From IMG/VR virus record IMGVR_UViG_3300025759_000093, positions 1 to 62,580 of that record: DNA of 62,580 nucleotides; one strand, written 5' to 3'. Position 1 is the stretch's first letter. Every line of letters begins with the position of its first letter. This document shows positions 7,829 to 54,672 of this stretch, piece after piece. The notes below the pieces were generated by a model. It was not told the origin of the DNA. It saw nothing but the letters and a program-made list of their open reading frames with translations, and did not search any database. This DNA comes from a virus (taxonomy: Duplodnaviria; Caudoviricetes). A program made the translations under genes and the position numbers.

Positions 7829-7987
7829 CTACTTTATGTTACCACCACGTTTTCTACACTTAGCTATATAACCACTAGCATACGCAGATGGAAACACATC
7901 GTATTTAGCTTTAGCTTTTTTATAACAAGCATCTTTTAAAGCTGCGGGTGAATCGTATTTATTAAAAGGTGTTTTACATTTTCTCAT
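7829..7987 (-). CDS. Small basic late protein (52 aa), not in the ORF track
   Basis: MRKCKTPFNKYDSPAALKDACYKKAKAKYDVFPSAYASGYIAKCRKRGGNIK; coupled to the giant gene's stop. Confidence 0.7.
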   Translation of the reverse strand: MRKCKTPFNKYDSPAALKDACYKKAKAKYDVFPSAYASGYIAKCRKRGGNIK

Positions 7988-10900
7988 TTTCTTCTTGTTT
8001 TTGATCTTCTATTACTTGTTCTAAAACTAGATCTTCTGCTTTTACCTCTAGAACTTTGTTTCTTTTCAGATTTTAATTGCCAATCTGGCCATCCTAATAT
8101 CATCGCTACACTTTCCCACCACTCTTTTTCTTCTTCAAAAGCTCCTGTAAAGTTGTCATACTTTAACAAAGCTCTATCAAGAGGTATGTTTGTAGTTGCT
8201 GAAACTACTTTAGCTCCTGCTAAATAAGCTGGGTTATCAATAGCAAAACCTTTATCAAGCATTTCTTGTCTACGTTTTTTACTATCAAACTGATAAGCAG
8301 CACCTCTAATTTTAGATATTTTACTACTTATAGGTGGTGAAAACTGAAGCAGCTTCCAAGTAGCATCGACATATTCTGGTCTAGATCTTTTAGATCTTTC
8401 GTATATATCTAATAATAAATTCTTAATAACAGAGGCTGAAGCTCCGCCTATGCCTAAACCTCTCAACATAGAGTCAGACATACCATTCATAGTTCTATAT
8501 ATTTTTTTGTCATCTTCGTCGTCGTCTCCGTCACCTGCCCCAATAGCAAATAAAGCATTTTGTAAAGAGTTAAATATTAAGTTTTGAACAAACCCATAAT
8601 AAGCTATTTTACTTACATTAGTTTTCCAGTCTCCTCTGCCTGCTATTAAATCTTGTATAGATCTTTTTTGTATACGAGCATACTGCATAGGTGTATTAGC
8701 AAACATTAATATTAACCTTCCATAATCACTAGCTTGTTGTTGTGATATTTTATCAGGTCTACTTGATTGTTGAGATTCTTCTGATATTTCTTTCCACTCT
8801 TGTAATGCTTGTTCAGTAGCTTGCTTTTCATTAAGTCCACTGTTTTCCATTAAATCATTTATTCTATTACGATAATAAGTAGCACCACCAGCAGCTATAG
8901 CAAAGCTATCAGCAAACTGAGTAGGCGCATAACCTTTTTCCATTATATAAGCTATTGCACCTTTAGCTCTATTTTTAGCAGTCTTTGCAGCATCAGCTAT
9001 TTCAGATTCAGTTACATTTATTCTTAAACCTTGTCTTCTATCTTTTAGATAGTCAGAGTTCATTAACGTCATAAAGTCTTTCCAATACTGAGGTTGGTTG
9101 GCAAATGCAGCACCAGCTTTTAAAGGATTATTAAAATTCCAATTAACATAGTTTATAGCAGATATAGTTTGAAGTACTGCAGATCTTGTATTTAAAAACA
9201 TTATAGCAGCATTAGATCCATTAATGTAGTCTAATATTCTATTGCTAAGTCTAGTTCCTTCTGATGATCTGTTCTTACCAGTCTTAATACGTTTAATCAT
9301 GTTCTCCAGCGCATCTCTATATTTTCTTCCATACATAGCTTCTAGCTTATTTAAATTAGCCTCACTATATATTTTATCAATTCTTTGATTAAAGTCTTCG
9401 TAATACTTATATCTCTTAGTAGTATTAAGAAGCTGTTGTATATCAGTGCTTAATGTTCCAGCAGTCCAACCATTACTAGGATTAGACCAACCATCTCCTT
9501 TAGTTATTTTTAAAAGCTCTTGAGCAAACTCTATTAACTGAGGGTCATTTTCAATAATCTCAGTCATTTCTTTTAAGTCTGACGCATCTATTCCAGGTAT
9601 ATTAGTTATGCCTGTTGAATACCATAAATAAACTCTCAAGGCTTGTTCCTTAGTAAAACCTCCAATGCTTGTAGATTTATTTAAATCTTTAGGTATATTT
9701 AAATCTTTCTTAAGTTTCTTAAAATCATTTATCAACTGTAGTCTATCAGCCCTCAAATCGCCATCAGCTTTTGCTAAAGGATCTAGTAAATGTTTTTTGT
9801 ACCATGACATTTGTAAATTACCTAATGGTCCTTTAGCTAGGGTAGGATATATTAAACCTACTAAATCTTCAGCTGAATAAGGAATAAAGAATTTAAAGCT
9901 ATCTTTATCTTTACCAAGAAGTCTACCTTTTTCTTTAGATATTTCCTTCTTAAACATAGGATCTTTCTTCATAGTTATTAGCTGATCAAACTCTTGATCT
10001 AACCCTTGTGAAAACTTTAACTTAGCTTGTTGTACTCTAGACTTAACGTCTAATACACTCATGGCATCTTGAACAGCTTTAACATTTTGTAAAGCATCAT
10101 CAGCAAAGTAAAAGTCGTTGTATCCTTCAGCCGCTTTATCTACTAGCCAGTTGGCTTTTGCTTCACCAGTAGAATTACCTAAACCTATTATATTTTCTTT
10201 TTTAAATTCTAAACCTTCAGACTTTAAAAATTCATATATAGCTTCTTGAGATAGTGGTGACCTAGCTGTTAAAACAAATAGATCTTCATTACCTCTAGCA
10301 TCTTTTATTTTTTTAGCTAAATTAAATAGTGGACCTCGCTTGCCATCTCTTACAATATCAAAATCTGTAAAGTCCATTACAGCGCCTTGTTCAACTAGTT
10401 GAGATCCTTGCTCTGCAAATTGCTCAGCTGTAAGTTCACCCTCTGTTCCATCTGGCTTTGTCCAAAATACTAAACTGTTACTTTGAGCTAGTGTATCATC
10501 AAAATCAAATACTCTAATTTTCTTTATTGGTTGATCTAACTTATTTGCTAACCTTAACGCTTCATCTACACCAGCAGCTTTACTTAAAATATCTTCAGAA
10601 GTCATATCGTTAGATACGTTTAAAACTTTTGAATAGCTTAAGTCAGTAACATTTACACCTTTACTAGCTTTTAAACCTGGAGCTGTTTTCAAAAACTCAT
10701 TTAACCTTTGTTTAGCAACCTTTTGTGATATATCTCCATTTAATATTTGATATAGTAATTCTTGTTGCTTGGATATAACAGATGGTGTTATTTGATTTTC
10801 AGCTACATTAATACCATTGTTTTCAGCTACAGATTTGCCATTGCTCTCTATGAGGATATTAGGATCTACACCTTTATGGATCTTACCGTTTTCGTCTTCT

Positions 10901-13900
10901 CTAACTTGGCTATTTACATTTGGATTAAAGTATCTTATCCATATAGACTTAGTCCCCATTAAAATGTCATAAGCAAACTCTACAGGAGCATTAGCTGTAT
11001 AATTAAAAGGCTTACCGTCTACACCAATACCTTTTAACATTAGATCATTAACATATGGTAATAAACCTTGAAAGTAATTATTTAAAGCACCATCAACATA
11101 TAGATCGTAGTTACCTTGTAACATCCTGTTGAATAAAAACTTGCCTAAATCACTAGCCGGTTGAGTATGTTCTTCAACTGGTTTTAAACCTGTATAATTA
11201 GTAAACATTATAGGCGAAAATGTTCTCATCATGTGACCTTGGTAGGAGCTGGTAGAAGAAAGCATAGCTGCTACAAAAGGAGCATTACTAATATCATCTT
11301 GTATTAACTTATTTAAAGCGTCTAATACTTGTTTAAATCCTTTTTCTTTATCCTTCTGTTGCTGTTCAAAATCTTTCGTACCAAACTTTTCATTAAGCTT
11401 TACATAGCTCATACGTTTTAAACCTGGTATTATTTTACTAGCAAATTTTATTCCGTCTTCTTGTATTCTATCTAAAAACGCAGCAACTTGTTTAGCATTT
11501 AAAAAAGCAAAGTTACCACCATAATCTCTTTCACCAGTTTTATTACCGTCTAGATCTTTAACAGATACTGTTTTACCAGTAAAGGTTCCAGCTGAATTAA
11601 TTGTAAAAAATTCTTTAGGTACTAATGGTGCTAATACATTAGCTAACCATAACCTGTAGGCTTCTCTACCTTCAAAGCTTTTCATGTTGATTGGATCTAG
11701 TCCATTAGCTTTTAATATTTGATTCCAATTTTTTTGCTCTGCAAGAAGTTGTTCTCCAGTGCTAGCAGTAAATAGTTTTCTAGCTTTATCTATTTTTCTC
11801 TGTTGTGCTTTAGTCATTTTGACTCCTTTAGAAAACATCAACTCTGCTTTACCTTCAGATAACTTACTAGGAACTGGCAAGCCTTTATCTTGTAATGCCT
11901 CTCTAACCTCTTGATTTGTAAGCATACGTTCTGTTTGAGAAACTAAAGCTTTTATTCTAGCGCTAGTATTTCTATCTGCTAAGTTCATTTCACCAGCTGG
12001 TGTTATTCCAAATACTTCTTTAAACAAAGCAGGACTTATATTTTTATTCTTTTCAAAAGCAGATAAACCGGCTTTACTACCAGTCTTAGACATTTTAACT
12101 CTATCAGTCTTAGTATAGAAGTTATCTAATAATACTTTTTGTACACCAGTTGAAGTACCTCCAGGCGTTGATCCTTCAGGTAACATAGTAATTAAAGCTT
12201 CCGCATTTTTATTTATAAACTGCTGAGCATTTCTTACATCGTCTTTAGTTAAGTTTCCAGGTTTTGGTTTTATACCAAACATTTCTTGCACTTCTTGTAG
12301 GGCTATATTTTTTAAAGATTTAAAATCTAAATCTGCAATAGGCAGATTATCTACCTCAGCTCTAACTTTTTTAACAGCTTGTTCAACATCACCACTTAAT
12401 CTGCTCTTAAGTTTAATAGCTCTTTTAGGTTGTACAACAGGAGTATCATCTGCTTCTTCAACAGCTGCTAATCCTACTTGCTCTGTAACATCGTCAGTAA
12501 ACTCTTCACCTAAAACTCTTTTCGATGCTTCAATAGCTCTTGAAGGTAGAAACTTATTTATGTAAGCTGCTAAAGGTACGCCTGACTCTGGATCATAAGC
12601 TCTTATTAAATCTAATATACCACGCTCACCAGTTTCTATTTCATCAGTAAGTAATTGCCTATCAAAACCAGGAGCTTCACTTCTACGTTGTACTATTTTA
12701 TTTGTAATAGGTTTGAACTGTTCTATAATATCAAAAGCTGCAGCCTCACCTTGTTCGTCATATAATCTCTGAACCTCTTCACTAGGTCCTTTAGAAAGCT
12801 TACCATCAGATTCATCTTCTGGTGGAGCAGCTTGTAAATTAAAATCTTGTACGGAACTTTGAAAACTTTTTATATAGTTAAATACATCATCTCCAGTTTT
12901 TAGTGGAATTAAAAAACCAGTCTTAGGATTAAATTTATTAGCTAAGTTTTTAAGCATATATTTTAAACCTGATATTTTGCTAAAATCATATTTACTTAAA
13001 ACTCCTGTAGCAACCATATCTCCAAAAAGGTTTAACACTTCTTCAACATCTACACCTTGGTTTTTAACAAAGTCGTCATATTGCTCTTGAGTTATTTCTT
13101 GATTACTTAATTGAGTTTGCAACTCTCTTATAGTAGATGTATAAGCTTGTTTTCTATTTAAATAATTATTATAATCTTCTTGGGATATTTTGCCAGTTTC
13201 TTTGTTTATTTCTAATTGTTTTTCAGCTTGTTCTAAAGCTAACTGAGCAGACTCAACAACAACTCCATCTTTAACTATACCAGCTTTTCTATTTTCTATA
13301 TGAAATAGTTCATGCATAGGAGCAACAGCAGACATCGTCGCAATAAATCTATCTGAAGTTTGACCTATATTTCTAGCAATATTATCTCTAAATACTATTA
13401 TGTCTTGATCAATAAATGTACCGTTTGAATTTTTACCTCTAGCTTCTATTAATTGCTCTGCTCTATCTCCATAAAGTTCTCTTAGTTCTTCGACTGTTGT
13501 TTGGTCATTAACTTCTGTATACTTATTACCGTTTAACTCTTGTGTTACACCTACTATATTATTATAAAACTCAAACAACCCTTGGTTATAAGCGGCCATC
13601 GCAGGATCAAAAGCATCTTTTTGATCTTGAGCAGCTTTTGTTTTTCTAGTATTTAAAAGCTTTTCTATTTGCGTATCTACAGATTTATATTGATTAATAA
13701 ACTGTTGCTTTTGTTTTTTAATAGCTTTGCTTTCAGGATCTGCTCTACCACCTAGCTCTATTAGGTTATTTATATATTCTTTTCTTTGACTTATTAAATC
13801 AAATAATTCTATTTGTTGTGGCTCACTTAAAGCACTAAGCTTTTCTACGTTTTCTATATTTCTAAAAGCTGCTTGTTGTAATATTAAATCTTGTTCTGCT

Positions 13901-16377
13901 TTTAATATTTTCTTTTCTTTTTTAGATCTTTTAGTACCGTCGTTTAGAGCTGTTTCTATTTCTATTAATCTATCAAAGCTAGCTTTTTCAACTTTATAAT
14001 CATTTTTAGTTCTAACATTGTCCCCTAACATAGCGTACAAATTGCTACCAACACTAGGTCCTTGTATAGCTAAACTAGTTAAACCAACATTAAAAGCAAA
14101 CTCAGCATCTATACCATCTAGTATAGATTTATTTTCACCTAGTATATATATATCTGAAAGGTTATTACCTATTTGAGCCGCAGTTTCTTCAGCTATTTCA
14201 ACACCTACATTAATTCCTAAGTTTAAACCTTGATACATAGCTTTTTTAAACATAGTAGATCCTACAGGTGCTGCTATTCTGTTTAAGTTTTTCATATAGT
14301 TTAACGTACCTAGACGTTCACTGTACATGTCTACAGCTCCAGAAACTAATTGAGATCCTGCTTTTTGAAGTATGTTAAGATCTTTGACTCTATTAAGCTC
14401 TTCTATTTGATTTTTAGTTTCAGCTATTTCAAAAGGACTTAATAAACCAGAGTCTAACTTTTTTTCTAGTTCTACTATAGCTTTAGGCGCGTTACGTTGT
14501 GCTATATTTATTTCAGAACCTTTTAAACCGTAGCTCATATTAAAAAATATACCTTGAGCAATTTTACTAGCTCTAGCTTGAGCTAAATTAGCTTTAGCTT
14601 TTAGCTTAAATCTTTCAGGTCCAGAAGCTTTATTAATAGCTTTTTTACTAGGACTAGCCATCTTACCTCCAAATCTAGTCATAAGCACTGTGGCAATACT
14701 AGGCATACCTTCTGCAAAGCTTTGACTAACATATCCACTTAAAGCTCCAGCGTCCCAAGCATCACTCATTGAAGGCTTAGGCGCCATTGCTACGGCCATT
14801 TCTTGTTGTAAGCTCTCGTTGTAATCTAAAGATACGCCTTCTACTTTATTTAAAAAAGTAGATAAAGCTGTTGCATCTTCTTCACCTATAGTCTTGTCTA
14901 TAACCTCTCCTACCATTCCTAGTGTAGTTCCAACTGTGGCTGATGCAGCACCTAAAAATGATTGCTCCATACTTAAAATAGCTTTATCTAAAGAAGAAAA
15001 GTTTTTAGTAGCAAGTTCTAAACTTAAAGATACATCTCCTAGTTCGTTAGAGTCTGCTAGTAAAGAGTCACGCTCTTTGTTCCAAGCTATAATATCTTCA
15101 GCTAATTTTTCTCTTTTATCTAATAAACCACTAGATTTGTACTCATCAATAACACCGTTGTAAGATGTTAGTAAATCGTTATATTCTTTTTTAATAGCTT
15201 CAGGAGAATCATTGCTAATTCCATTCTTATCCATTACATCTAGCTGTTTTTGTATTTCTTCAGCTTGACTATTTAATTCTAAGAATTGTTCGTTATTATC
15301 TAGCTCATCTTGTTGCTCTTGTATAGACTTCATTTTATTAGAAATATCACTAGATCTAAGTTGAATATTTTTAGCTTGTAAATCCATTAAGCTAGGATTG
15401 TTAGACAAATCCATTACATCTTTAAAATCTAAACCTCCTTTAACTTGGTCAGCTAGCAAAGCGGTTAGCTTATTTCTATCTGTTTGAGTTAAGTCTTTAT
15501 TAGCATGATAGAAAGCATTAAGCTTATCTGACTTAACTTTGTTTAGTGTTTGAGTTTTTAATTGATCAGATGCTTTATCTATTACACTATCGCTTATTTC
15601 TCCAGTTTCTTTGTAATGCTTTACTTCTTGATAAACCTGGTCAGACATCCAGCTAGGCTTTTCATCATCTATAAATAATCTATCCACAGCGTTAGTGCCT
15701 ACCATTTTATTAAGTCTCTCCATTGGAGTTGGAGCTCCTTCTAATTCTACCGTTTCAAAACCAGACATAGGTTTATTTAAATCTTCTTCTATAAAATTAG
15801 CTAATAAAGTTTTCTTGTAATCTTCATTAGACTCATCTACATTAGATAAGGTTTTTCTATACTCTTCAACTAAAGGTTTTAACTTAGCAGCAGTCTCTGG
15901 TTCTCTAAATTCAAACTGATCTACTTGACTTAGTTTGTCATACTCATCTTGATTATGTTTTATTTCTGCAGCTATTAAAGGATTTTCTAAATCTTGTTGT
16001 ATTTCGTTTATATTATAAACAGGTTTAACAACTTGATCTGCAACCATGTTTATTTCTTCAGGTGGTAAAAAACCATTTTCTTCATCTTTATTATCTATAG
16101 CTTCAAACATAGCCTGAGCTAGATCCATATCTGGTTCTGGTAATTTATCACCAGCAGCTGAGTTGAGAAGATCTTCTTTATCAGGAACTATATTAAATAA
16201 ATCTTCCATCATTTGTTCTGAAGATGGAACATTATAATATTCAGACAAACCTTCTCTAACTTTTTCTAATACGTCAGGGTTTTGAATATCTTCTACAAAC
16301 TTTTCAAAATCTGGTAAGTTAAAATGCTTAACAGCTTTATCGTATAAAGATCTTAGTCGTTGTTCGTTTGGACTCAT
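7984..16377 (-). CDS. Giant (2797 aa) putative virion ejection/polyvalent protein with HExxH, sigma-70 r2-like and HAD domains
   Basis: Located after the tail and small ejection genes; largely helical. HELFH at ~aa 1022, sigma region-2-like segment at ~aa 1212-1287, HAD motif DFDDT at ~aa 1958. Confidence 0.8.
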   Translation of the reverse strand: MSPNEQRLRSLYDKAVKHFNLPDFEKFVEDIQNPDVLEKVREGLSEYYNVPSSEQMMEDLFNIVPDKEDLLNSAAGDKLPEPDMDLAQAMFEAIDNKDEENGFLPPEEINMVADQVVKPVYNINEIQQDLENPLIAAEIKHNQDEYDKLSQVDQFEFREPETAAKLKPLVEEYRKTLSNVDESNEDYKKTLLANFIEEDLNKPMSGFETVELEGAPTPMERLNKMVGTNAVDRLFIDDEKPSWMSDQVYQEVKHYKETGEISDSVIDKASDQLKTQTLNKVKSDKLNAFYHANKDLTQTDRNKLTALLADQVKGGLDFKDVMDLSNNPSLMDLQAKNIQLRSSDISNKMKSIQEQQDELDNNEQFLELNSQAEEIQKQLDVMDKNGISNDSPEAIKKEYNDLLTSYNGVIDEYKSSGLLDKREKLAEDIIAWNKERDSLLADSNELGDVSLSLELATKNFSSLDKAILSMEQSFLGAASATVGTTLGMVGEVIDKTIGEEDATALSTFLNKVEGVSLDYNESLQQEMAVAMAPKPSMSDAWDAGALSGYVSQSFAEGMPSIATVLMTRFGGKMASPSKKAINKASGPERFKLKAKANLAQARASKIAQGIFFNMSYGLKGSEINIAQRNAPKAIVELEKKLDSGLLSPFEIAETKNQIEELNRVKDLNILQKAGSQLVSGAVDMYSERLGTLNYMKNLNRIAAPVGSTMFKKAMYQGLNLGINVGVEIAEETAAQIGNNLSDIYILGENKSILDGIDAEFAFNVGLTSLAIQGPSVGSNLYAMLGDNVRTKNDYKVEKASFDRLIEIETALNDGTKRSKKEKKILKAEQDLILQQAAFRNIENVEKLSALSEPQQIELFDLISQRKEYINNLIELGGRADPESKAIKKQKQQFINQYKSVDTQIEKLLNTRKTKAAQDQKDAFDPAMAAYNQGLFEFYNNIVGVTQELNGNKYTEVNDQTTVEELRELYGDRAEQLIEARGKNSNGTFIDQDIIVFRDNIARNIGQTSDRFIATMSAVAPMHELFHIENRKAGIVKDGVVVESAQLALEQAEKQLEINKETGKISQEDYNNYLNRKQAYTSTIRELQTQLSNQEITQEQYDDFVKNQGVDVEEVLNLFGDMVATGVLSKYDFSKISGLKYMLKNLANKFNPKTGFLIPLKTGDDVFNYIKSFQSSVQDFNLQAAPPEDESDGKLSKGPSEEVQRLYDEQGEAAAFDIIEQFKPITNKIVQRRSEAPGFDRQLLTDEIETGERGILDLIRAYDPESGVPLAAYINKFLPSRAIEASKRVLGEEFTDDVTEQVGLAAVEEADDTPVVQPKRAIKLKSRLSGDVEQAVKKVRAEVDNLPIADLDFKSLKNIALQEVQEMFGIKPKPGNLTKDDVRNAQQFINKNAEALITMLPEGSTPGGTSTGVQKVLLDNFYTKTDRVKMSKTGSKAGLSAFEKNKNISPALFKEVFGITPAGEMNLADRNTSARIKALVSQTERMLTNQEVREALQDKGLPVPSKLSEGKAELMFSKGVKMTKAQQRKIDKARKLFTASTGEQLLAEQKNWNQILKANGLDPINMKSFEGREAYRLWLANVLAPLVPKEFFTINSAGTFTGKTVSVKDLDGNKTGERDYGGNFAFLNAKQVAAFLDRIQEDGIKFASKIIPGLKRMSYVKLNEKFGTKDFEQQQKDKEKGFKQVLDALNKLIQDDISNAPFVAAMLSSTSSYQGHMMRTFSPIMFTNYTGLKPVEEHTQPASDLGKFLFNRMLQGNYDLYVDGALNNYFQGLLPYVNDLMLKGIGVDGKPFNYTANAPVEFAYDILMGTKSIWIRYFNPNVNSQVREDENGKIHKGVDPNILIESNGKSVAENNGINVAENQITPSVISKQQELLYQILNGDISQKVAKQRLNEFLKTAPGLKASKGVNVTDLSYSKVLNVSNDMTSEDILSKAAGVDEALRLANKLDQPIKKIRVFDFDDTLAQSNSLVFWTKPDGTEGELTAEQFAEQGSQLVEQGAVMDFTDFDIVRDGKRGPLFNLAKKIKDARGNEDLFVLTARSPLSQEAIYEFLKSEGLEFKKENIIGLGNSTGEAKANWLVDKAAEGYNDFYFADDALQNVKAVQDAMSVLDVKSRVQQAKLKFSQGLDQEFDQLITMKKDPMFKKEISKEKGRLLGKDKDSFKFFIPYSAEDLVGLIYPTLAKGPLGNLQMSWYKKHLLDPLAKADGDLRADRLQLINDFKKLKKDLNIPKDLNKSTSIGGFTKEQALRVYLWYSTGITNIPGIDASDLKEMTEIIENDPQLIEFAQELLKITKGDGWSNPSNGWTAGTLSTDIQQLLNTTKRYKYYEDFNQRIDKIYSEANLNKLEAMYGRKYRDALENMIKRIKTGKNRSSEGTRLSNRILDYINGSNAAIMFLNTRSAVLQTISAINYVNWNFNNPLKAGAAFANQPQYWKDFMTLMNSDYLKDRRQGLRINVTESEIADAAKTAKNRAKGAIAYIMEKGYAPTQFADSFAIAAGGATYYRNRINDLMENSGLNEKQATEQALQEWKEISEESQQSSRPDKISQQQASDYGRLILMFANTPMQYARIQKRSIQDLIAGRGDWKTNVSKIAYYGFVQNLIFNSLQNALFAIGAGDGDDDEDDKKIYRTMNGMSDSMLRGLGIGGASASVIKNLLLDIYERSKRSRPEYVDATWKLLQFSPPISSKISKIRGAAYQFDSKKRRQEMLDKGFAIDNPAYLAGAKVVSATTNIPLDRALLKYDNFTGAFEEEKEWWESVAMILGWPDWQLKSEKKQSSRGKSRRSSFRTSNRRSKTRRK

Positions 16378-19397: not shown

Positions 19398-21326
19398 TTA
19401 AACTGATGATACGCTATAGTTTACACCTATAGAGTAAAGTTCTTTCATACCGCCTGGATCTGTTGTTGTATCTGTACTGAATGTTACATCCATATAGAAA
19501 CCTTTTATACCTGTCATTTTATCTCCAAATATAACTTCACCAGCAGCCGCTGTACTTTTATTAACTAAGTTAGCTACATATCTATTTTCTTTTCTAGTAA
19601 AGCCAGCGTGTCCTAAAGGTTGATTTTGAGGATTAGCATTTATACCAGTGTTACCTAAAGAGTCGTAAGCTCCTTCTAAGTAGCTATATATAGGATCACC
19701 TGAATCTCTACTTTTTACCCAGTCACCAGTCCATGTTCCTGTTAAAGTTCTTTTATCGTCAAAACCTGTTCTATCAGAAGTTAGTATACTTGCTTGCCAT
19801 CCATTATCTCCTTCATAGTCTACAGTTAAAAAGTTTTTCTGAAGTGAAGGTATTGAGTTAGCTATTATACTTACCTCAGCTTTATTGTTGATGCCGTAAA
19901 ATTGACTATGAGGTACGGCTGTGGAGTAGTGAGAATACATACCTGGTCTTATTAAAGTTGTATTATCATTCCACCAGTCTGAGTTTACAGTATAAAAAGT
20001 ACTTTTTAAACTACCAATTTGGCTTGGTTTATAAGTATAAAAACTAGGCCAACCAGATACTTGTTCATCAAAACCTAATGTAGCATATTTTACAGATCTT
20101 TTAGGTATAGTTTGTTGAGCTAAAGTTGTTGACTGAGTATAAGTAAAAGACTCATTAGGTTGTATAGAAACTACATACTGTTTGTTATACGCATCCCAAC
20201 CACCATATACTCTACTTCTGTTGAATGTTACAAGTTTAATACTTGTGATATTGTTTTGCTCAGCAGGTGTTATTGTTTTATTTAAAACTATAAAGTTATT
20301 ACCTGATAAATATTGTATTCCTTGAAAGTAAATATTTAAGTCTACATAATCACCAGTGTTGTTATACTGCACAAGTATTTTACTACCCATTACACCATAC
20401 TGAAAAGAATATCCAGCGTTACCTGTGTTAGGAACAGTGTTTGCATATCCTATCAAGTTTTGGTTATAATTAGCAGGGGCGCTAGTACCTACGCCAGGTA
20501 TAGTAGTTTGTGTAAATTCAAACTCATCTGTTAGCTCTGCAAACGAGTCTCTAAAATAATCACGCATACCATATTCTGATATTTCAGTTATGCCATCATG
20601 TGATAATCTTAACACTGCGTTTCTATTTCTATCAACAAAGTATTTTCTAAAAGCATATATAGCAAAAGACTCTGGGTTTTTACTTATACCATACTCACCT
20701 GTGTAAGGAACTATCTCACCTATAACTTGATTTGTTGTAGTAACATTACCTCCACCTTCAGCGTTATATATAGCAGATTTATCTATCAAAGCTCTACTAC
20801 ATTTATTTTCTTGTAGTACTATTAAGTTGTTTTCTTCAGCATATATCTTTTGTATAGATCCATATTGAGGATTAGCAGCTTTAGTTATGTTAGTTCCAAC
20901 AGCATATTCATTAGTTCTATTAATACCAGTTCTAGAATTATATATACCTGAATATATTAAAGCATTAAATCTATGTTGCTGTAAAGGTTCTTCTTCGTCT
21001 AGATAAGCTCTAACACCATAAGACATAGAAGCATCGTTAAAACCGCCTCTAAGATACATCTCTTCTATATAGAAGTTTTCTTTTACTCTAGATGCATTAA
21101 TATTAGTACCATTAAAAGGAGGTATTAAAGCTGCTACATATGAAACGCTCATTGGATTAGCATAAACATCGTTCATTGGCCAAGTACCATAACGAGCAGC
21201 AACACCGGTACTACCAGGCACAGTAACATTTCCAGTTTGCATCGAACCTTGTGGAGTTAAAATTCTTTTATTCCACATGCAATTGTAGTAGTCTACTTCT
21301 ATTATAGGTAAATTTACTGCACTCAT
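19398..21326 (-). CDS. Tail tubular/nozzle (stabilisation) protein, C-terminal part
   Basis: GISKNPESFA..YFVD..RNAVLRLS.DG and W.SFY motifs resemble crAss-like tail stabilisation proteins. Confidence 0.7.
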   Translation of the reverse strand: MSAVNLPIIEVDYYNCMWNKRILTPQGSMQTGNVTVPGSTGVAARYGTWPMNDVYANPMSVSYVAALIPPFNGTNINASRVKENFYIEEMYLRGGFNDASMSYGVRAYLDEEEPLQQHRFNALIYSGIYNSRTGINRTNEYAVGTNITKAANPQYGSIQKIYAEENNLIVLQENKCSRALIDKSAIYNAEGGGNVTTTNQVIGEIVPYTGEYGISKNPESFAIYAFRKYFVDRNRNAVLRLSHDGITEISEYGMRDYFRDSFAELTDEFEFTQTTIPGVGTSAPANYNQNLIGYANTVPNTGNAGYSFQYGVMGSKILVQYNNTGDYVDLNIYFQGIQYLSGNNFIVLNKTITPAEQNNITSIKLVTFNRSRVYGGWDAYNKQYVVSIQPNESFTYTQSTTLAQQTIPKRSVKYATLGFDEQVSGWPSFYTYKPSQIGSLKSTFYTVNSDWWNDNTTLIRPGMYSHYSTAVPHSQFYGINNKAEVSIIANSIPSLQKNFLTVDYEGDNGWQASILTSDRTGFDDKRTLTGTWTGDWVKSRDSGDPIYSYLEGAYDSLGNTGINANPQNQPLGHAGFTRKENRYVANLVNKSTAAAGEVIFGDKMTGIKGFYMDVTFSTDTTTDPGGMKELYSIGVNYSVSSV

Positions 21327-29587: not shown

Positions 29588-31063
29588 TTAAGCTCCTTTG
29601 AATAACACGAAGTTATTAGCAGCTTGAGTTACTAAACATCTTTCAGATAAGAAATTAACTCTCATTGTATCAAGATCAGAAGTGTAAGCTCCACCTACAG
29701 AACCAGTGATCCAAGCTTTGAATCGTCTGTCTTCAGTTTCAGAAGCTCTAAATCTTACGTGTAAGAAAGGACGTCTGATATTTGATCCTAACATTTGATC
29801 GTATACTGTAGATGTACCAGCTGGTATCATAACACCGTCAATAGCGCTAGACATACCTCGTGTAGTAGCATCGTTTAAGTATTTCCAGTCAGTTTTATAG
29901 AAGTCATAAGAACCTCTTCTGAAACCAGAGAAACCAAAGTTAAGAGCCATTTCAGCTTCGTTATCAAATAAACCGTAAGAAGCAGCTTGAGTTGAAGCAA
30001 AACCACCATTAGTAGCAGCTAACATATCATCAAAATCAAGAGCAGTTTGTCTTGATAAAAATAACATATTTTCTTCAATAGCACCTTGCTTATCTAATTG
30101 CTTAAGGATAGCATCAAAATCTGCTAACGCACCTGAACCAGGAGCAGCAGCACCAGCAAAACCAGAGTATACATTACCTCTTGCTTCGATAGCAGCAAAT
30201 AAACCTTCAGTACCTTTAATAGCAGAACCATTTGCTCCAGTAGGACCAAACCCAGTTCCAAAAGTACCAGCATTAGCGTTAAGCTCACCTTCAACCATTG
30301 CCATTTCTAAATAGTCTTCAAATCTTAGTCTAGTTTCAGACTCAGCTTTTAAATACCATAAGTATCCAGAAGTACCATCTTCAGTAGCAACTTCGATCCA
30401 GCCAATTTGAGCTGTATCAGATCCACTTAATTCATAGTTATCTTTTAAGATAATTGGAGAATTAGTGAAAGTAGTTACATTAGGCTCGATAGCTTGCTTC
30501 ATTCCTTCACTTCCTTTTGGAAATTCAGAACCATAAACAAATAAACTATTTGTACCAGTTGTGTTAGTTAAAGCAGCTCCCTCATAAGCGTGACATTCTA
30601 ATGTATAACCATTAGTAGTAGCATTATCAGTATTAGATAATACTAAAGCTTTAAGAGTTACTAAACCAGTAGCGTTGTCAGAGATTAAAATTGTATTACC
30701 AACTCTAATACCTGAACTAGCTGGGTTACCAGCACCTGGAGTAATAGTTACTCTAAACTTAGGAAAAGCTTTACCAGCAGCAGCAACAACAACGTTATCA
30801 TATGCTACGTGTAATCTATTTTGTTCAGACCAAATTACTTGATCTGATGTCATTGGCATTTCAGCGCCAACCATTCTTAGGAAACCAGATAATGTTCTGT
30901 TTCCGTATCTCTCTACTTCTTGCTCATAAAGCTCAGGTAGATATTGTTGTGCCCATTGTCCATTAGCTAAGTTATTAAAATCTATGTAATTGTCTTGTAC
31001 AGTGACTTGACTTGGCATAGGTGTAATACTTGCTGGAAATGAACCTCCATTTACAAAACTCAT
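29588..31063 (-). CDS. Major capsid protein
   Basis: 491 aa after portal and scaffold, followed by a strong terminator; QQYLPELYEQEVERYG and RRGSYDFYKTDWKYLND motifs. Confidence 0.85.
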   Translation of the reverse strand: MSFVNGGSFPASITPMPSQVTVQDNYIDFNNLANGQWAQQYLPELYEQEVERYGNRTLSGFLRMVGAEMPMTSDQVIWSEQNRLHVAYDNVVVAAAGKAFPKFRVTITPGAGNPASSGIRVGNTILISDNATGLVTLKALVLSNTDNATTNGYTLECHAYEGAALTNTTGTNSLFVYGSEFPKGSEGMKQAIEPNVTTFTNSPIILKDNYELSGSDTAQIGWIEVATEDGTSGYLWYLKAESETRLRFEDYLEMAMVEGELNANAGTFGTGFGPTGANGSAIKGTEGLFAAIEARGNVYSGFAGAAAPGSGALADFDAILKQLDKQGAIEENMLFLSRQTALDFDDMLAATNGGFASTQAASYGLFDNEAEMALNFGFSGFRRGSYDFYKTDWKYLNDATTRGMSSAIDGVMIPAGTSTVYDQMLGSNIRRPFLHVRFRASETEDRRFKAWITGSVGGAYTSDLDTMRVNFLSERCLVTQAANNFVLFKGA

Positions 31064-36931: not shown

Positions 36932-37209
36932 TTACTTCGCCCTTCTGCAAAACCTTTAAATGATTTTACTTCTTTTTCTACTTTATTATTATCACCTGAT
37001 AAAATAGATTCTTCCTCTTCTATTCTTTGCAGTATTTCAAAAGCATCCATTATACAGAGCTTTTTAGTAGCTGCCGCGTTCTTTAATCTATCAGCTGACA
37101 CATCATCGTCTGTATGTGTAATGATTTTTTCTTCAGCTACTTTAATTAACTCGTCTACAGCTTTACGCCCAGCTCGGATTATGTTCTTTCTCGTTTCCTT
37201 CGTACTCAT
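36928..37209 (-). CDS. Putative terminase small subunit
   Basis: Small helical ORF coupled immediately upstream of terL. Confidence 0.45.
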   Translation of the reverse strand: MSTKETRKNIIRAGRKAVDELIKVAEEKIITHTDDDVSADRLKNAAATKKLCIMDAFEILQRIEEEESILSGDNNKVEKEVKSFKGFAEGRSK

Positions 37210-37747
37210 GAGTTAAAGCTATGTCATTTGATTTCATACAATATAAACGTTCATTATCAATGATAAATTCAAACTCAGAGTTTGGCGTAAACGTTACAAG
37301 TGTTCCAGGTGTTATTCCTATGGCTTCTAAGGAGCTATTAGTATATTTCATTATACCAACGTTAGGTTGCTCTTTATTAATGCTTAAATAATCTTTATTT
37401 AAAATAGGTTTTACAAAGCAATAAGGTCCATGAGGTTTATTGTTATACATGTATATTTGATCAGGAGTACAAAAGTATAAATCATCTTTAAAATACATAG
37501 AGCTATTACGTTCTTTTCCCTTTTGATCATACCATCTTCTAAATATATTATGATGCACATATACATTGTCACCTATCTTTATGTGTGAGCTATAAGCAGC
37601 TGGCACCGATACAACAACTGCTTGCTTGCTCACAAATCGGTGGTTCTCTATGGTGGTATTTATGATAAGCGTTTTATCGCCTACCTTTCTTATATTATCA
37701 TACCTACTATTAAGAGGTTTGATAATAAAGTTATATAAACTTTTCAT
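37163..37747 (-). CDS. GroES-like (tandem co-chaperonin-like) protein
   Basis: Two repeats of the pattern FIIKP/CFVKP...G(D/T).V.....Y. Confidence 0.5.
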   Translation of the reverse strand: MKSLYNFIIKPLNSRYDNIRKVGDKTLIINTTIENHRFVSKQAVVVSVPAAYSSHIKIGDNVYVHHNIFRRWYDQKGKERNSSMYFKDDLYFCTPDQIYMYNNKPHGPYCFVKPILNKDYLSINKEQPNVGIMKYTNSSLEAIGITPGTLVTFTPNSEFEFIIDNERLYCMKSNDIALTHEYEGNEKEHNPSWA

Positions 37748-44949: not shown

Positions 44950-45210
44950 TTATATTATTACTACAACGTCATTTTCTTTTATAACTTTGTATTGTTTGTT
45001 TTTTATTTCTATACCAAAGCCAGATGCTTTATCATAATATATTTTATCACCAGCATCTACATCTATTACATCAGTACCTGGCTCTATAACTAGAGCCTTG
45101 CGGTACCTTATATCTTCTCTCTGCTTTTCAGCGAGTATTAAACCTCCTGTAGTTCTAGCATTTGTATCCTTTATAGGTTTTATTACTATATATTTGCCTA
45201 CTGCTTTCAT
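44950..45210 (-). CDS. groES: Co-chaperonin GroES
   Basis: TTGGLIL mobile loop, V.AGD.I.Y and IKENDVV motifs; coupled to groEL. Confidence 0.85.
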   Translation of the reverse strand: MKAVGKYIVIKPIKDTNARTTGGLILAEKQREDIRYRKALVIEPGTDVIDVDAGDKIYYDKASGFGIEIKNKQYKVIKENDVVVII

Positions 45211-46754
45211 ATTCTAATATTGTTTATTACACAATCAGTAGACAGTATAGTAGTCGCTACAGAAGCCGCGTTTGTTAAAGCGCTTTTAGTAACTAACAAA
45301 GGATCTATTATTCCGGCTTTTACCATATCCACCGTATTTCCTGTAACCACATCTAATCCTCTACCGTCTTCGTCTGGGTCAACATGTTCTGTTATACCAG
45401 CATTACGCAATATTGTTTCGTAAGGTTTACGTATAGAACAATATAATACTTCTTCACCTATGTTTGATGGTTTTAAATTTTGTGAAGCATTTAATAAAGC
45501 TATACCGCCACCTGGCACTATACCTTCTTTTACTGCGGCTTTAGTAGCGCAAATAGCATCTTCTACTCTGTCTCTTTTTTCTTTTAACTCTAATTCAGAG
45601 TTAGCACCTACTTTAACAGTAGCTACTTTAGCTTTTAGTCTAGCTAATCTTTTTTCTATTCTAATAACTGTATTAGGATTTTTATTAGTAGATAATTCTT
45701 TTTTAAGTCTATCAACTATTTCTTTAACGTTATCATTATTTTCTAAATCTACTTTTAATAATGTATCGCTTTTATCAGTTACAGATTTTAAACATCTACC
45801 TAAGTGATCTATACCTACAACATCCATGTCGTCACCTAAATCTTCATTTATTAAGGTAGCTCCAGTAACAGCACATAAATCTTCTAATACTTCTGCTTTA
45901 GTTATACCATAATGAGGAGCACTTATAATATTAACTTTTATATTGCCTTTTGTTTTGTTCATAGCTAAAGCACTTGATACTTGAGTATCTACATTGCCTA
46001 TTATTAATAAACTTTCATTATGTTTTATAACATACTCTAATACGTTTTGTATTTTTCTAACGTTATCTATAGTAGACTCTGATATTAATACAAGTGGGTT
46101 ATTTAGCTCACACACGTTTAGCTCTTTATTAGTAACAAAATGATTAGAGGTTAAACCATGTTCATACTGTACGCCTTCTATTAATTCTACACTAGTATCA
46201 GCTTTGTCAGTTGTTTCCATTATTACAACTCCTGTTTCATTTACCATTTTAAAAGCCTCACCTATTATAGATCCTAACTCTTTATCATTGTTTGCAGATA
46301 TAGTAGCTACTTGATCTATTTTATCTCCTGTTACTTTTTGAGAGTTTTTAGTTACGTACTCTAAAACTTTAACAACTCCACTATTGATACCTTCTTTCAT
46401 AGCTCTAACGTCGTCTAGTAAGCTATGTGATTCTGCCTCTTTTAATATTGCGTGAGCAAGTATCGTTGCCGTGGTAGTTCCATCACCAGCTTCCTTAACA
46501 GTTCTTTGTGCAGCTTCTTTTATAAGTGTTGCACCAATATTTTCTAACGGATCTTGTAGTGTTATTGAATTAGCTACTGTAACTCCGTCTTTTGTAATTT
46601 GTGGGTGTCCATTACTATCCTCTAGTATAACACATTTACCACTTGCTCCTAGCGTTGAACCTACAGCATTAGTAAGTTTCTCTACGCCAGTTAAGACCTG
46701 GCTTCTAGCTGTATCGCCAAAAGCCAAGTCTTTTACTAACTTGATTTCTTCCAT
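45207..46754 (-). CDS. groEL: Chaperonin GroEL
   Basis: ITKDGVTVA, AGDGTTTAT, EGIVPGGG and GIIDP motifs; no GGM tail. Confidence 0.95.
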   Translation of the reverse strand: MEEIKLVKDLAFGDTARSQVLTGVEKLTNAVGSTLGASGKCVILEDSNGHPQITKDGVTVANSITLQDPLENIGATLIKEAAQRTVKEAGDGTTTATILAHAILKEAESHSLLDDVRAMKEGINSGVVKVLEYVTKNSQKVTGDKIDQVATISANNDKELGSIIGEAFKMVNETGVVIMETTDKADTSVELIEGVQYEHGLTSNHFVTNKELNVCELNNPLVLISESTIDNVRKIQNVLEYVIKHNESLLIIGNVDTQVSSALAMNKTKGNIKVNIISAPHYGITKAEVLEDLCAVTGATLINEDLGDDMDVVGIDHLGRCLKSVTDKSDTLLKVDLENNDNVKEIVDRLKKELSTNKNPNTVIRIEKRLARLKAKVATVKVGANSELELKEKRDRVEDAICATKAAVKEGIVPGGGIALLNASQNLKPSNIGEEVLYCSIRKPYETILRNAGITEHVDPDEDGRGLDVVTGNTVDMVKAGIIDPLLVTKSALTNAASVATTILSTDCVINNIRI

Positions 46755-47071: not shown

Positions 47072-47734
47072 TTAATTTGCTTTTGCCACGTTTTTTAACG
47101 AAGCGGTTTTTAATGTTCCGTCTTTTACTTCTTGAGGTACCCAAGAAAACAATCTTGTATCTGCAACATCGTGCAGTAAAATGGTCTTGTCGGTTACTTT
47201 CCAGTCATAAAAGTACTCATAGCCAAATAAGGCTACGTCTGGTTGCATAAACTCTATAATAGCGTTGTTGAATAACTTACCGCCATTTGCCCACTTAACA
47301 TCGTCATATGTGTTTAAACAATCATATATAACTCTGCTTTTTGGAATGGCTCCGTATATTGCACAGTCTATTAGAGTATTATGGTTTTGTGTTCTTTTCA
47401 TGCCAGCAAAGAAACAGTGCTTATCTGTTAAATGCTCATACACATGATCAAACGATTTTATTGGCTTACAGTCTACATCTAAGTATATGCCGCCAAATTT
47501 TTCTAATAATAGTAATCTTATTCTATCGCATATAAATGCTGCTGGTATTTCGTTTTGTGGATCAATATATGATTTCAAATATATATCATCTTTAAATTCT
47601 TCAAAAACTTCATTACCCCACAATCTATAAGCGTAGTCTTTATTCATTAGCTGTATCTCTCTACAAAATTCAGCGCAGTGTTCTGGTATAGGATTATTAC
47701 CTATCCACAACTGGTGTATTACCTTTGGTATCAT
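47072..47734 (-). CDS. DXD glycosyltransferase (GT32/OCH1-like)
   Basis: MIPKVIHQLW and DRIRL.LL..FGGIYLDVD motifs. Confidence 0.85.
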   Translation of the reverse strand: MIPKVIHQLWIGNNPIPEHCAEFCREIQLMNKDYAYRLWGNEVFEEFKDDIYLKSYIDPQNEIPAAFICDRIRLLLLEKFGGIYLDVDCKPIKSFDHVYEHLTDKHCFFAGMKRTQNHNTLIDCAIYGAIPKSRVIYDCLNTYDDVKWANGGKLFNNAIIEFMQPDVALFGYEYFYDWKVTDKTILLHDVADTRLFSWVPQEVKDGTLKTASLKNVAKAN

Positions 47735-52699: not shown

Positions 52700-52786
52700 A
52701 TCATATATTATTTATCTATAATCTTTGTGTTATAGTTTGTTTTTTAATCCTATTTAGTTTATGTCGCTTATCCATCGCGTACATTA

Positions 52787-52817
52787 TAGTAATTCACTTG
52801 TATTTCACGATATTTAC
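52787..52817 (-). promoter_or_regulatory. Class II (late) promoter variant at the head of the late block
   Basis: GTAAA-N15-GTGAATTACTA. Confidence 0.55.
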
Positions 52818-52828
52818 CCTATAGAAGG

Positions 52829-52873
52829 GTGACACTTACCTGTTATTAAGTAGCTTTAAGGGGCTAATGTCAC
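52829..52873. repeat. Inverted-repeat operator/origin-like site, copy 1
   Basis: GTGACA-N33-TGTCAC; shares GGGCTAATGTCAC with the copy at 60927-60970. Confidence 0.6.
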
Positions 52874-52879
52874 TATATA

Positions 52880-53100
52880 TTAGAAATATTGGAGTATTGC
52901 ATAGCGCCACCACAATATAATTTTGTGTAAATAAGAAAATGAAATATATAATTGCGGGTCCCCATTGTTTTATATAATTTAATTGTTATATATGACATTT
53001 ATTTAATATATTATTGTGTCAATGTTATATATATATTGTACAAACTAATTACGACTTATGTTGGATAATATAAATGTAAATAAAATATATAAATAAACTA
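52880..53100. other. Very AT-rich non-coding divergence region (possible origin or genome-end region)
   Basis: Strand switch between late and early blocks; imperfect inverted repeat ATATATGACATT/AATGTTATATAT at 52988-53032. Confidence 0.45.
53039..53069 (+). promoter_or_regulatory. Class I (early) promoter motif
   Basis: TACAAACTAATTACGA-N8-GGATAAT. Confidence 0.75.
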
Positions 53101-53103
53101 ACA

Positions 53104-53232
53104 ATGAAAAACTTAATTAACAACATCGAACTAACAATATTAAAATTATCACTCATATCATTTATATCAACAGTAATATATATGATAGTAGAATATGGAA
53201 TTATTAACTACATATCATTCAATGGAATTTAA
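53104..53232 (+). CDS. Small membrane protein (42 aa), first early gene
   Basis: MKNLINNIELTILKLSLISFISTVIYMIVEYGIINYISFNGI; follows a promoter motif. Confidence 0.55.
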   Translation: MKNLINNIELTILKLSLISFISTVIYMIVEYGIINYISFNGI

Positions 53233-53305
53233 TTAATGTAAATTATTGAGATAATATGTGTAACACTTCTCAACTAATTTTAACTAATAAACAAAGTTAC
53301 ACTCT

Positions 53306-53336
53306 TACAAACTAACAACGAACTAAACTGGATAAT
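53306..53336 (+). promoter_or_regulatory. Class I (early) promoter motif
   Basis: TACAAACTAACAACGA-N8-GGATAAT. Confidence 0.72.
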
Positions 53337-53379
53337 AATAATAACTAAACTAAATATAAATAAATAAAATATAATAACT

Positions 53380-53634
53380 ATGAAAACTAATAACTTAACT
53401 ACAAAAAGATTTGTAATCAGAAAATCATTACTCGGAACTAATTCAGTAATTACTTTCACTAACAAAAAAGGCTATAAATTCACTTATGATCATGATGAAA
53501 TTTACTCAACATTTCAAGAAAAGTTTGAAAGTATGCCGTGTTTCCAACAGTACAAATCTTATACAAATAGTAATACTGTTCCAAAATTCTGCAGAGAATT
53601 AAGTGAAATCTTAGATCATCAAGTTTCTGAGTAA
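53380..53634 (+). CDS. Early hypothetical protein
   Basis: 84 aa with its own promoter motif and an A-rich leader. Confidence 0.7.
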   Translation: MKTNNLTTKRFVIRKSLLGTNSVITFTNKKGYKFTYDHDEIYSTFQEKFESMPCFQQYKSYTNSNTVPKFCRELSEILDHQVSE

Positions 53635-53694
53635 TAAAATAAAGTCCAGTTAGTTCTACTCGTTTACTGGTAAATCAAATATGAATGAGTAATA

Positions 53695-53755
53695 TAGCCG
53701 ACGGGTATATAAATACTTGGGAAAGAGGTGAGGTTCGACTCCTCACTCGGTTACA
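53695..53755 (+). ncRNA. tRNA-like element (acceptor stem + one hairpin + T-arm)
   Basis: TAGCCGA/TCGGTTA stem, CGGGTAT-ataa-ATACTTG hairpin, GTGAGG-TTCGACT-CCTCAC T-arm; too short for a canonical tRNA. Confidence 0.5.
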
Positions 53756-53782
53756 AACTAAATACTATCCAAAGTGGATAAT
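53752..53782 (+). promoter_or_regulatory. Class I (early) promoter motif
   Basis: TACAAACTAAATACTA-N8-GGATAAT. Confidence 0.7.
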
Positions 53783-53809
53783 ATAATAAACTAAATAAAA
53801 TTAATAACT

Positions 53810-54010
53810 ATGTATAATGTAAATAATCCTTCAAACTGGTCTTGGTCAAAAGCTTTTGACGAAATGGAAAAGACTGTAAATCAAGCTGAACTTACTCAGC
53901 AATGTATAAATCACGTTCTCAATTATCCCGGAGAAGCTAATGGTGTCTTCATGACATTAAGTAAATCTCAACAAGATGATGTGTATGAACTACTAAATCA
54001 AGTGCTATGA
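53810..54010 (+). CDS. Early hypothetical protein
   Basis: 66 aa following a promoter motif. Confidence 0.65.
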   Translation: MYNVNNPSNWSWSKAFDEMEKTVNQAELTQQCINHVLNYPGEANGVFMTLSKSQQDDVYELLNQVL

Positions 54011-54213
54011 ATAATCTAAATACTACAATAGACAAAATAGCAATGTCAGAATTTGACATGCACTATTATCAACTCGGTGACAATGAGAAACAATGGTGTC
54101 ATGATGAAATGGTGAATAATCCAAAGTGGCTAAAGAAAGATTGGGAAGATCCATTATTTTGTGTAGCTGATAAGTGGAAAGCTGGTTTACCAATATATAA
54201 AACTTATAAATAA
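54007..54213 (+). CDS. Early hypothetical protein
   Basis: 68 aa, ATGA-coupled. Confidence 0.65.
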   Translation: MNNLNTTIDKIAMSEFDMHYYQLGDNEKQWCHDEMVNNPKWLKKDWEDPLFCVADKWKAGLPIYKTYK

Positions 54214-54232
54214 ACAAATAAAAACAAATAAT

Positions 54233-54391
54233 ATGATAGATAACTATGAATTTGAAATATACTATGGTGACATTGAAGAACCACTATATTTAACTAATGA
54301 TAAAAACTATATTTGCGATGAAATGAGAGATTTCATGGAAGAATTAGGAATAATAATGAATGAAGTAATATATAAAGTAGAAAAAATATGA
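54233..54391 (+). CDS. Early acidic hypothetical protein (52 aa)
   Basis: MIDNYEFEIYYGDIEEPL...; coupled to the next ATG. Confidence 0.5.
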   Translation: MIDNYEFEIYYGDIEEPLYLTNDKNYICDEMRDFMEELGIIMNEVIYKVEKI

Positions 54392-54645: not shown

Positions 54646-54666
54646 ATACGACAACTAATGGATAAT
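54636..54666 (+). promoter_or_regulatory. Class I (early) promoter motif
   Basis: TACAAAATAAATACGA-N8-GGATAAT-N6-ATG (ATG at 54673). Confidence 0.78.
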
Positions 54667-54672
54667 AACAAT

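Follow-up and report, generated by a model that had tools for sequence, protein, structure and literature searches.

What does it mean that a single phage protein carries a similar short motif again and again between its domains, and could another domain of the same protein cut it there? The question is raised by a giant open reading frame (ORF) on the minus strand of a 62,580-nucleotide stretch of viral DNA (Duplodnaviria, Caudoviricetes; IMG/VR record IMGVR_UViG_3300025759_000093, positions 1 to 62,580), the whole of which is called the window here. A preliminary description, made from the letters of this DNA, had listed five linker motifs and an upstream HELFH motif and had proposed a self-cleaving polyprotein. 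All of the listed motifs were found where they had been placed, the numbering of E1023 is right, and the six fall within one minus-strand ORF, 7984-16377. In phages and conjugative elements, polyvalent proteins possess zincin-like metallopeptidase (MPTase) hub domains, and in the accessible text of the paper describing them autoprocessing is proposed (Iyer, Burroughs, Anand, de Souza, Aravind 2017, PMC5512222). There is good support for the giant ORF, which belongs to a Flavobacteriia podophage, likewise encoding a 'polyvalent' protein with a virion or ejection role.

The linkers do separate modules, as had been claimed, and the protein is a chain of modules with conserved linker motifs that lie in low-confidence inter-domain segments (Table 1). 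In an AlphaFold model of residues 940-2139, obtained from a 56-sequence alignment and with a mean predicted local distance difference test score (pLDDT) of 77, the stretches of pLDDT below 50 are 1175-1196, 1291-1321, 1431-1434, 1512-1520, 1901-1911, 1924-1926 and 2117-2139, the last of them being the end of the model. All four S[KQ]G sites (1195, 1516, 1905 and 2123) fall within these 103 of 1,200 residues, for which the probability by chance is about 5e-5, or about 3e-4 when the model-end segment is left out. The S[KQ]G pattern alone is unremarkable in the giant protein (4 seen against 1.7 expected, P about 0.1, 2,000 shuffles), and [FLA]S[KQ]G, with 4 seen against 0.39 expected, gives a P of 0.0005 in shuffles, a value that is optimistic because the pattern was written after the data had been seen.

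When homologues were aligned (56 sequences, down to about 35% identity), all four junctions were found to be kept, in agreement with the linker conservation that had been expected. At junction 1 the column reads KFSK[ST], KLSKG, KMSKT or ISFSQE, its Ser being nearly invariant, at junction 2 it reads EGKxxxMFS[KQA], with EGKxxxMFSK as the family consensus, and at junction 4 it reads DVKS+VQQAKhKFSKxhNxxFN. At junction 3 distant homologues display NVVNFSKTTNNEG, and because this aligns with VLNVSNDMTSED of the giant protein, KASKG and YSKV, which had been taken for the linker motifs at this place, are better regarded as extra upstream look-alikes, the homologue of FSK in the third junction being probably NVSND at about residues 1920-1924. 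The consensus L-x-(F/A/Y)-S-K-G had also to be revised to a (K/M)-F-S-K core, in which Gly is dispensable and in distant members Phe is too. A conserved short motif is found at every module boundary, and it is degenerate in distant members. Among 121 family members KFSK was seen 140 times against 9.5 expected from composition, a count that is inflated by homologous positions, and the strict motif [ILVMK][KMN]FSK[GST] has all of its 108 occurrences in 120 proteins downstream of HExxH and none upstream.

Three observations argue that the motif belongs to the junction and not to the neighboring module. It persists when the module changes, since P0043, P0054, P0096, P0109 and P0114, in which another module follows junction 1, carry KFSKSEVTELAKQYK at the place where the sigma-like module would start. 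It is duplicated around inserts: DVKS.xQxxK..hKFS[KR] flanks both sides of a module of about 125 residues inserted after the HAD domain in P0004, P0035, P0055, P0082 and P0109, P0107 has larger inserts bracketed by three copies of IKFSK, and the linker element is also duplicated in loci L003, L013, L014, L042 and L055. Finally, there is one motif per boundary at domain-sized spacing, as in P0109 (at 811, 1136, 1523, 1740 and 1903) and P0094 (at 1033, 1362, 1709 and 1910). In 47 distinct sequences the invariant linker residues are encoded by varying codons (Lys, AAG 25 and AAA 22; Val, GTA 18, GTT 19, GTG 6 and GTC 1), which argues that selection acts on the peptide.

Table 1. Modules, motifs and linkers of the giant protein, with their positions in the window and, for the modules scored with phmmer, the number of relatives in which each was detected.
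Feature	Residues	Window positions	Strand	Near relatives	Viral-contig loci	Basis or description
Giant ORF (P0001)		7984-16377	minus			2,797 residues; last gene of the structural block
N-terminal region	1-~924	13606-16377	minus			coiled coil, Gly/Ala-rich, variable in the family
Putative zincin-like domain	~925-1095	13093-13605	minus			predicted strand, long helix, beta-hairpin, two short helices, HExxH helix (AlphaFold)
HELFH (H1022, E1023, H1026)	1022-1026	13300-13314	minus			sequence
Helical subdomain	1096-1174	12856-13092	minus	56/120	21/68	by sequence more widely shared than the zincin part
Invariant Glu, E1113	1113	13039-13041	minus			on a later predicted helix; alignments A1, A2, A3
Linker 1, GKLSKGP	1192-1198	12784-12804	minus			ends disordered stretch 1175-1196, segment 12784-12855
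Sigma region-2-like domain	1199-1290	12508-12783	minus	71/120	13/68	VIA-align
Disordered stretch 1291-1321, then conserved module 1322-1511	1291-1511	11845-12507	minus			pLDDT, alignment
Linker 2, ELMFSKGV	1512-1519	11821-11844	minus			pLDDT <50 at 1512-1520
380-residue alpha/beta module	1520-1900	10678-11820	minus	40/120	11/68	high pLDDT; invariant E1736-H1737
Linker 3, GLKASKGV	1901-1908	10654-10677	minus			pLDDT <50 at 1901-1911
Linker 3, DLSYSKV	1912-1918	10624-10644	minus			pLDDT <50 at 1924-1926 nearby
HAD phosphatase, T4 Pnkp type	1919-2118 (core 1950-2107)	10024-10623	minus	120/120	63/68	PHROG, Pfam, fold
Linker 4, KLKFSQGL	2119-2126	10000-10023	minus			pLDDT low at 2117-2139, but this is the model end
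C-terminal domain	2127-2797	7987-9999	minus	120/120	68/68	family hallmark; many invariant columns

The family is large and almost anonymous. When 5.8 billion proteins were searched, 3,708 of the 7,999 candidates scored were members at E<=0.001, their names being absent or uninformative ('hypothetical protein' and a few spurious labels); the informative relatives are all metagenomic, and the giant protein itself is almost wholly without annotation. Two samples were used, 120 listed near relatives and 68 loci on viral contigs, and the presence of each module was scored by phmmer with that module as the query. Among the 120 listed homologues, residues 1901-2750 are covered in 117-118 and residues 1201-1400 in 98-104, the first 1,000, and with them the N-terminal region, being covered in only 9-55. 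Judged by the uneven module counts, the HAD domain and the C-terminal 670 residues are by sequence an invariant core, and it is the middle modules that vary. The swapping of cargo that had been predicted is accordingly found for the sigma-like and the 380-residue modules but not for the HAD domain, which is so nearly universal in both samples that it was ruled out as swappable cargo and placed in the core with the C-terminal domain.

The C-terminal domain is held by a single open frame of 1,982-4,076 residues, measured from stop to stop, in 66 of the 68 viral-contig loci; of the other two, one is cut by the contig end and one, L061, has only a 699-residue frame (1 of 67 uncut loci). Shorter proteins that match the C-terminal part were also retrieved (1,401 at E<=0.001 among 8,000 scored) and were considered as genuine split forms, but they are treated as fragments because their N-termini are mostly at an internal Met inside the HAD domain or lie on short contigs.

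The HExxH motif that had been noticed upstream of the linkers proved to be a family-wide feature, accompanied by an invariant downstream Glu. Of 121 relatives, 120 carry one [HE]ExxH in the corresponding position (105 HExxH and 15 EExxH, the exception being a truncated protein), about 145-175 residues before junction 1, even where the N-terminal half is not BLAST-similar to that of the giant protein, and 65 of the 66 giant viral-contig ORFs have one HExxH as well. Within the domain no columns are invariant except E1023, H1026 and E1113, H1022 being at least 90% conserved (alignments of 61 and 31 sequences), and E1113 is a candidate for the third metal ligand. An AlphaFold model of residues 880-1180 (pLDDT 85, predicted template modelling score 0.75) predicts, in model numbering, E74-77, H83-102, E107-110, E113-117 and helices up to H140-152, the last of which contains HELFH; up to the motif helix, this succession of strand, helix, hairpin and helix agrees with the zincin core as the accessible text of PMC5512222 presents it. 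The neighbors of the model in BFVD are weak (E 0.04-1.6) and include a crAssphage 'RNAP associated protein fused to zincin protease' as well as four proteins named 'large polyvalent protein-associated domain'. Taken together with the conserved residues, the model makes it likely that this is a divergent zincin-like domain of the polyvalent-protein kind.

Our preference, a tentative one that we place somewhat short of an even chance, is that the junction motifs are processing sites cut by this resident zincin-like domain. Gluzincins with a hydrophobic S1' pocket cut before a hydrophobic residue, and by analogy with this specificity the cut in the linkers would probably be made just ahead of Phe, Leu or Met. 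In the mechanism that we infer from the architecture described above, cutting would take place in the capsid or after ejection, the freed sigma-like module would act on the host RNA polymerase, the freed phosphatase would heal cleaved RNA ends and the invariant C-terminal domain would serve packaging or ejection. A joint reading of all the parts, which as a whole we consider unlikely, would be that a widespread family of marine Flavobacteriia podophages packages a self-cutting polyprotein in which a gluzincin cuts (K/M)FSK junctions and, in the cell that has just been infected, a sigma-2-only factor redirects the host RNA polymerase to early phage promoters, a Pnkp-type enzyme pre-empts tRNA-cleaving defences, the C-terminal domain is the packaging or ejection anchor and the motif is a standard connector for module exchange.

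Several results weigh against cleavage of the linkers by the resident domain. The family has no cultured relative, and neither the giant gene nor its product finds a match among 50,697 phage records (megablast, tblastn). The spacing of 87 residues between the second His and E1113 is long for a gluzincin, the peptidase models of Pfam and NCBIfam give no match to the giant protein in whole-protein or per-module scans, and the model of the domain has no Foldseek match at E<=0.001 in PDB or BFVD. Its sole whole-domain match in VIA-align is to a zincin, the Pro-Pro endopeptidase PPEP-2 (6fpc_A, Z 5.0, root-mean-square deviation 4.6, 144 aligned residues), in a list that was swamped by the long N-terminal helices of the model (880-948), at a cost in sensitivity, and a second comparison gave 3cmn (Z 3.1) and jannalysin (4jix_B, Z 2.9); the three matches are weak and within noise. 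FS[KQR] motifs are most numerous in the 15 EExxH proteins, which average 4.6 and all have at least one, whereas the mean of the 105 HExxH proteins is 2.77 and 15 of these lack the motif; the clade richest in FSK is therefore a poor fit to a simple dependence on the canonical HExxH. In distant members junction 4 reads LASKD, NESK, QAKD or KFAK, so that Phe is not required there, and the strict motif becomes rare, with 9 instances among the 65 proteins of the distant set. The C-terminal domain, too, contains an FSK-like motif (KIYSEANLNK in the giant protein, where the consensus is IFSxxNLNKLEA), so that the motif may mark the start of a helix and not a cutting site. The virion RNA polymerase of phage N4, in turn, has an HExxH domain and yet is packaged unprocessed, according to the accessible text of PMC5512222 and PMC13434306. 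A complex prediction for the HExxH domain, Zn and a 45-residue junction-4 peptide scored 0.00 in two runs, made with no controls, and counts neither way.

Many of these points are what would be expected if the protein were never cut and worked as one chain, like beads on a string, the disordered linkers permitting packing and threading through the tail, an explanation that we regard as possible but doubtful. The FSK-type motif would then be a helix-start or capping box, or would mediate docking to a shared partner (the portal, a chaperone or the inside of the capsid, for example), and the HExxH domain would act on a host target or on packaging and not on its own chain. The N4 precedent, the similar motif within the C-terminal domain, the better preservation of the motif in the EExxH clade and the single open frame of 66 of the 68 loci, which suits a polyprotein too, are in keeping with an uncut chain, and so does the position of each motif 2-4 residues ahead of the first predicted helix of the next module. 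Nevertheless, a capping box needs no conserved basic and hydrophobic positions upstream and is not expected to persist when the module that follows is exchanged, while for a docking motif there is no need to recur once at each boundary or to be missing from all of the N-terminal third.

It is rather improbable that the junctions are cut by another protease, either from the host or an unrecognised phage maturation protease, with the HExxH domain having a different substrate. FSK conservation does not track the canonical HExxH, and the support that fold comparison gives to zincin membership is weak, both of which would suit such an enzyme; nevertheless, no protease gene was recognised among the 46 other ORFs of the window with PHROGs or among 35 of them with Pfam, the relaxed pattern [FLMY]S[KQ][GSTA] is sparse elsewhere (5 occurrences in the giant protein and 7 in the 46 other ORFs together) and reveals no obvious maturation site, and the motif accompanies the HExxH domain with strict polarity. 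Least probable is that the linkers are mainly recombination joints, that is, short homology boxes for module swaps whose peptide has no function, for although inserted modules have a copy of the linker element on either side and breakpoints of BLAST similarity are threefold enriched within 10 residues of FS[KQR] over random positions (9.0% against 2.9%, from 30,075 breakpoints that are not independent), the variable codons at invariant residues place the conservation at the protein level and the motif survives at about 35% overall identity.

Regarding the cargo, a HAD phosphatase does lie between the third and fourth linkers, as had been predicted. Its closest fold matches in VIA-align are the phosphatase of T4 Pnkp (5uj0_B, Z 11.2; 1ltq_A, Z 10.6) and Pnkp1 (4xrp_A, Z 10.8), and it is matched by the profiles of PHROG 415 'polynucleotide kinase' (E 6e-5) and Pfam DUF2608 (23.5 bits, above the cut-off of 22.6). 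HAD motifs I-IV (DxDxT, T/S, K and DD) are invariant in 56 sequences, as D1958, D1960, T1962, T2037, K2074, D2093 and D2094, and the module ends in the invariant element DVKSRVQQA (2110-2118). No kinase domain was matched in the giant protein in Pfam scans. In some relatives a P-loop kinase (AAA_33/Zeta_toxin) is inserted at the position of the cap, q1976/1980, PF06414 and PF13671 being found in 10 of the 120 listed relatives and in 4 of 13 large viral-contig proteins, and in these the inserted kinase completes a Pnkp-like pair with the HAD domain.

The domain that follows the first linker had been called sigma-like, and its predicted fold agrees with sigma region 2: against sigB (8x6g_H) VIA-align gave Z 8.3, with a root-mean-square deviation of 2.8 over 87 aligned residues, followed by sigH (9a4r_A, Z 8.1), sigma70 (6xl5_F, Z 7.7), sigma28 (6pmj_F, Z 7.6) and pro-sigmaK (Z 7.5), values that are all near the background that VIA-align quotes for helical models. 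No Pfam family, Sigma70_r2 included, matched this domain at E up to 10, and its sole NCBIfam match, to SigI (E 0.047, 13.1 bits against a cut-off of 260), is below threshold. For the module at 1322-1511 no family or fold match was obtained and no sigma region 4 was found, this domain not having been folded and searched alone. A separate sigma-70-family protein is encoded by the phage at 61571-62320 on the plus strand (Pfam Sigma70_r2 at cut-off; PHROG 351), and BLASTP gave no alignment between it and the sigma-like module of the giant protein. The 380-residue module gave no lead in Pfam, NCBIfam or ESM Atlas, and the 1,200-residue model as a whole had no Foldseek match at E<=0.001. This module contains an invariant Glu-His pair at 1736-1737 (about 11167-11172, minus strand; VEEHTQPAS) and conserved QGH and NY.QG motifs, a combination that suggests an enzyme active site.

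Neither the N-terminal region nor the C-terminal domain is matched by Pfam or NCBIfam. A profile search against PDB sequences returned coiled-coil proteins only for the former, and for the latter ESM Atlas gave leads only, to viral hypothetical proteins (0.98), LPD39 (0.95) and LPD38 (0.93). About 215 residues into the C-terminal domain, at ~2330-2345, there is an FSK-type motif (D.IFSK[ED]N[LM]NKLEA in homologues P0034-P0119) that may mark a fifth boundary, splitting this domain in two. The last residues of the giant protein form a strongly basic Ser/Arg/Lys tail (~2768-2797, 7987-8076, minus strand), SRGKSRRSSFRTSNRRSKTRRK, that could bind the packaged DNA.

In its genomic context, the giant ORF has a start that overlaps the stop codon of an upstream 546-residue ORF, and upstream on the same strand is a block that encodes, according to PHROGs, the terminase large subunit, the portal, virion structural proteins and tail fibre proteins. 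Sub-threshold Pfam matches in this block are to the P22-type portal, crassvirus capsid and crassvirus muzzle families, among them the crassvirus muzzle C-terminal domain at 19398-21326 (minus strand, E 3.4e-5) and the crassvirus major capsid protein at 29588-31063 (minus strand, E 0.0016); the muzzle and capsid matches hint at a distant link of this phage group with Crassvirales. The terminase is 63% identical to that of the uncultured podovirus MW202828.1 and 44% to those of Flavobacterium Elemovirus phages, and it matches 87 phage records (68 of Flavobacterium, 15 of Cellulophaga, 2 of Tenacibaculum, 1 of Maribacter and 1 Caudoviricetes sp.), by which the source is a podophage related to Flavobacterium and Cellulophaga phages.

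Two of these phages have a giant protein in the same position after the tail genes, namely Elemovirus gp18 (3,694 residues; NC_055853.1 48718-59802, locus L002), annotated 'structural protein', and the product of Caudoviricetes sp. MW202828.1 741-12320 (3,859 residues; locus L001). Since the giant gene closes the structural block and this annotation is borne by its Elemovirus counterpart, we infer that the protein is virion-associated and packaged. These positional counterparts carry HExxH in a zincin-like context, two in MW202828.1 and one in Elemovirus gp18; unlike the giant protein they lack the DxDxT motif and have few FSK-like motifs, and no similarity to it was detected (tblastn, E 1.7 or worse).

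Elsewhere in the window, a phage GroEL at 45207-46754 (minus strand; PHROG 5725, E 4e-128) and a GroES-like co-chaperonin at 37163-37747 (minus strand; PHROG 13932, E 2.8e-20) form a pair that might help to fold giant multidomain proteins. A 220-residue protein with a DXD glycosyltransferase domain (47072-47734, minus strand; Gly_transf_sug, E 3.3e-8) possibly modifies DNA or the host. At ~52700-56300 the coding strand switches in a region where G+C falls to its minimum for the window (0.29-0.30) and which contains neither a tRNA nor an ORF of at least 100 residues; this is a candidate early promoter or origin region.

Compared with the polyvalent proteins of PMC5512222, as the accessible text describes them, the giant protein is likewise giant and multi-domain, encoded beside virion genes and furnished with one HExxH domain and several unrelated effector-type domains; the zeta-toxin-like kinase of some relatives and the LPD38 and LPD39 matches of the C-terminal domain, which are leads only, are further likenesses. 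Unlike them, it is matched by no Pfam LPD or peptidase model, and a fixed core of zincin-like, HAD and C-terminal domains frames its variable cargo. The accessible main text of that paper does not contain the word 'sigma', has 'had', among the matches listed, only as the ordinary word and, supplement aside, mentions no conserved junction motif. Polyvalent virion proteins with a zincin hub have been known since 2017, and what is new here is the junction motif at every boundary, the fixed frame and the sigma-2-like and Pnkp-type cargo.

A second likeness is to gp50 of phage N4, a protein of about 3,500 residues that, in the accessible text of PMC13434306, is packaged in a podovirus capsid, is ejected and starts early transcription, and in which an HExxH subdomain, C1, precedes a large helical C-terminal domain for which no homologues are known. 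The giant protein shares with it the order of an HExxH domain followed by a C-terminal domain in a giant podophage protein, its packaging being deduced from gene order, and no sequence similarity was found between the two. In contrast to N4 gp50, which carries a complete single-subunit RNA polymerase that is packaged uncut, the giant protein has only a sigma region-2-like fold and would therefore need the host polymerase. With T4 Pnkp and bacterial Pnkp1, of the Pnkp/Rnl/Hen1 RNA repair system, it shares a HAD fold closest to their 3'-phosphatase domains; it differs from them in having no kinase domain and in that its phosphatase is a module of a virion-block protein and not a free early enzyme. 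T4 gp55 is a minimal phage sigma-like factor built on sigma domain 2 only, and the sigma-like module resembles it in having a region-2 fold and no recognisable region 4, while differing in being embedded in a giant structural-block protein.

Literature searches, within the text accessible to them, turned up no sigma factor delivered by a virion and no polynucleotide kinase or kinase-phosphatase as an internal virion protein. To our knowledge, no cleavage sites have been defined so far in polyvalent phage proteins, and for these the present family offers a short, position-specific conserved motif at the module boundaries together with a single invariant HExxH...E. If the proposed delivery is true, a sigma region-2-like virion cargo would be a third route to early transcription, beside virion RNA polymerases and ADP-ribosylating proteins, and a Pnkp-type phosphatase delivered with the DNA would amount to a pre-emptive counter-defence.

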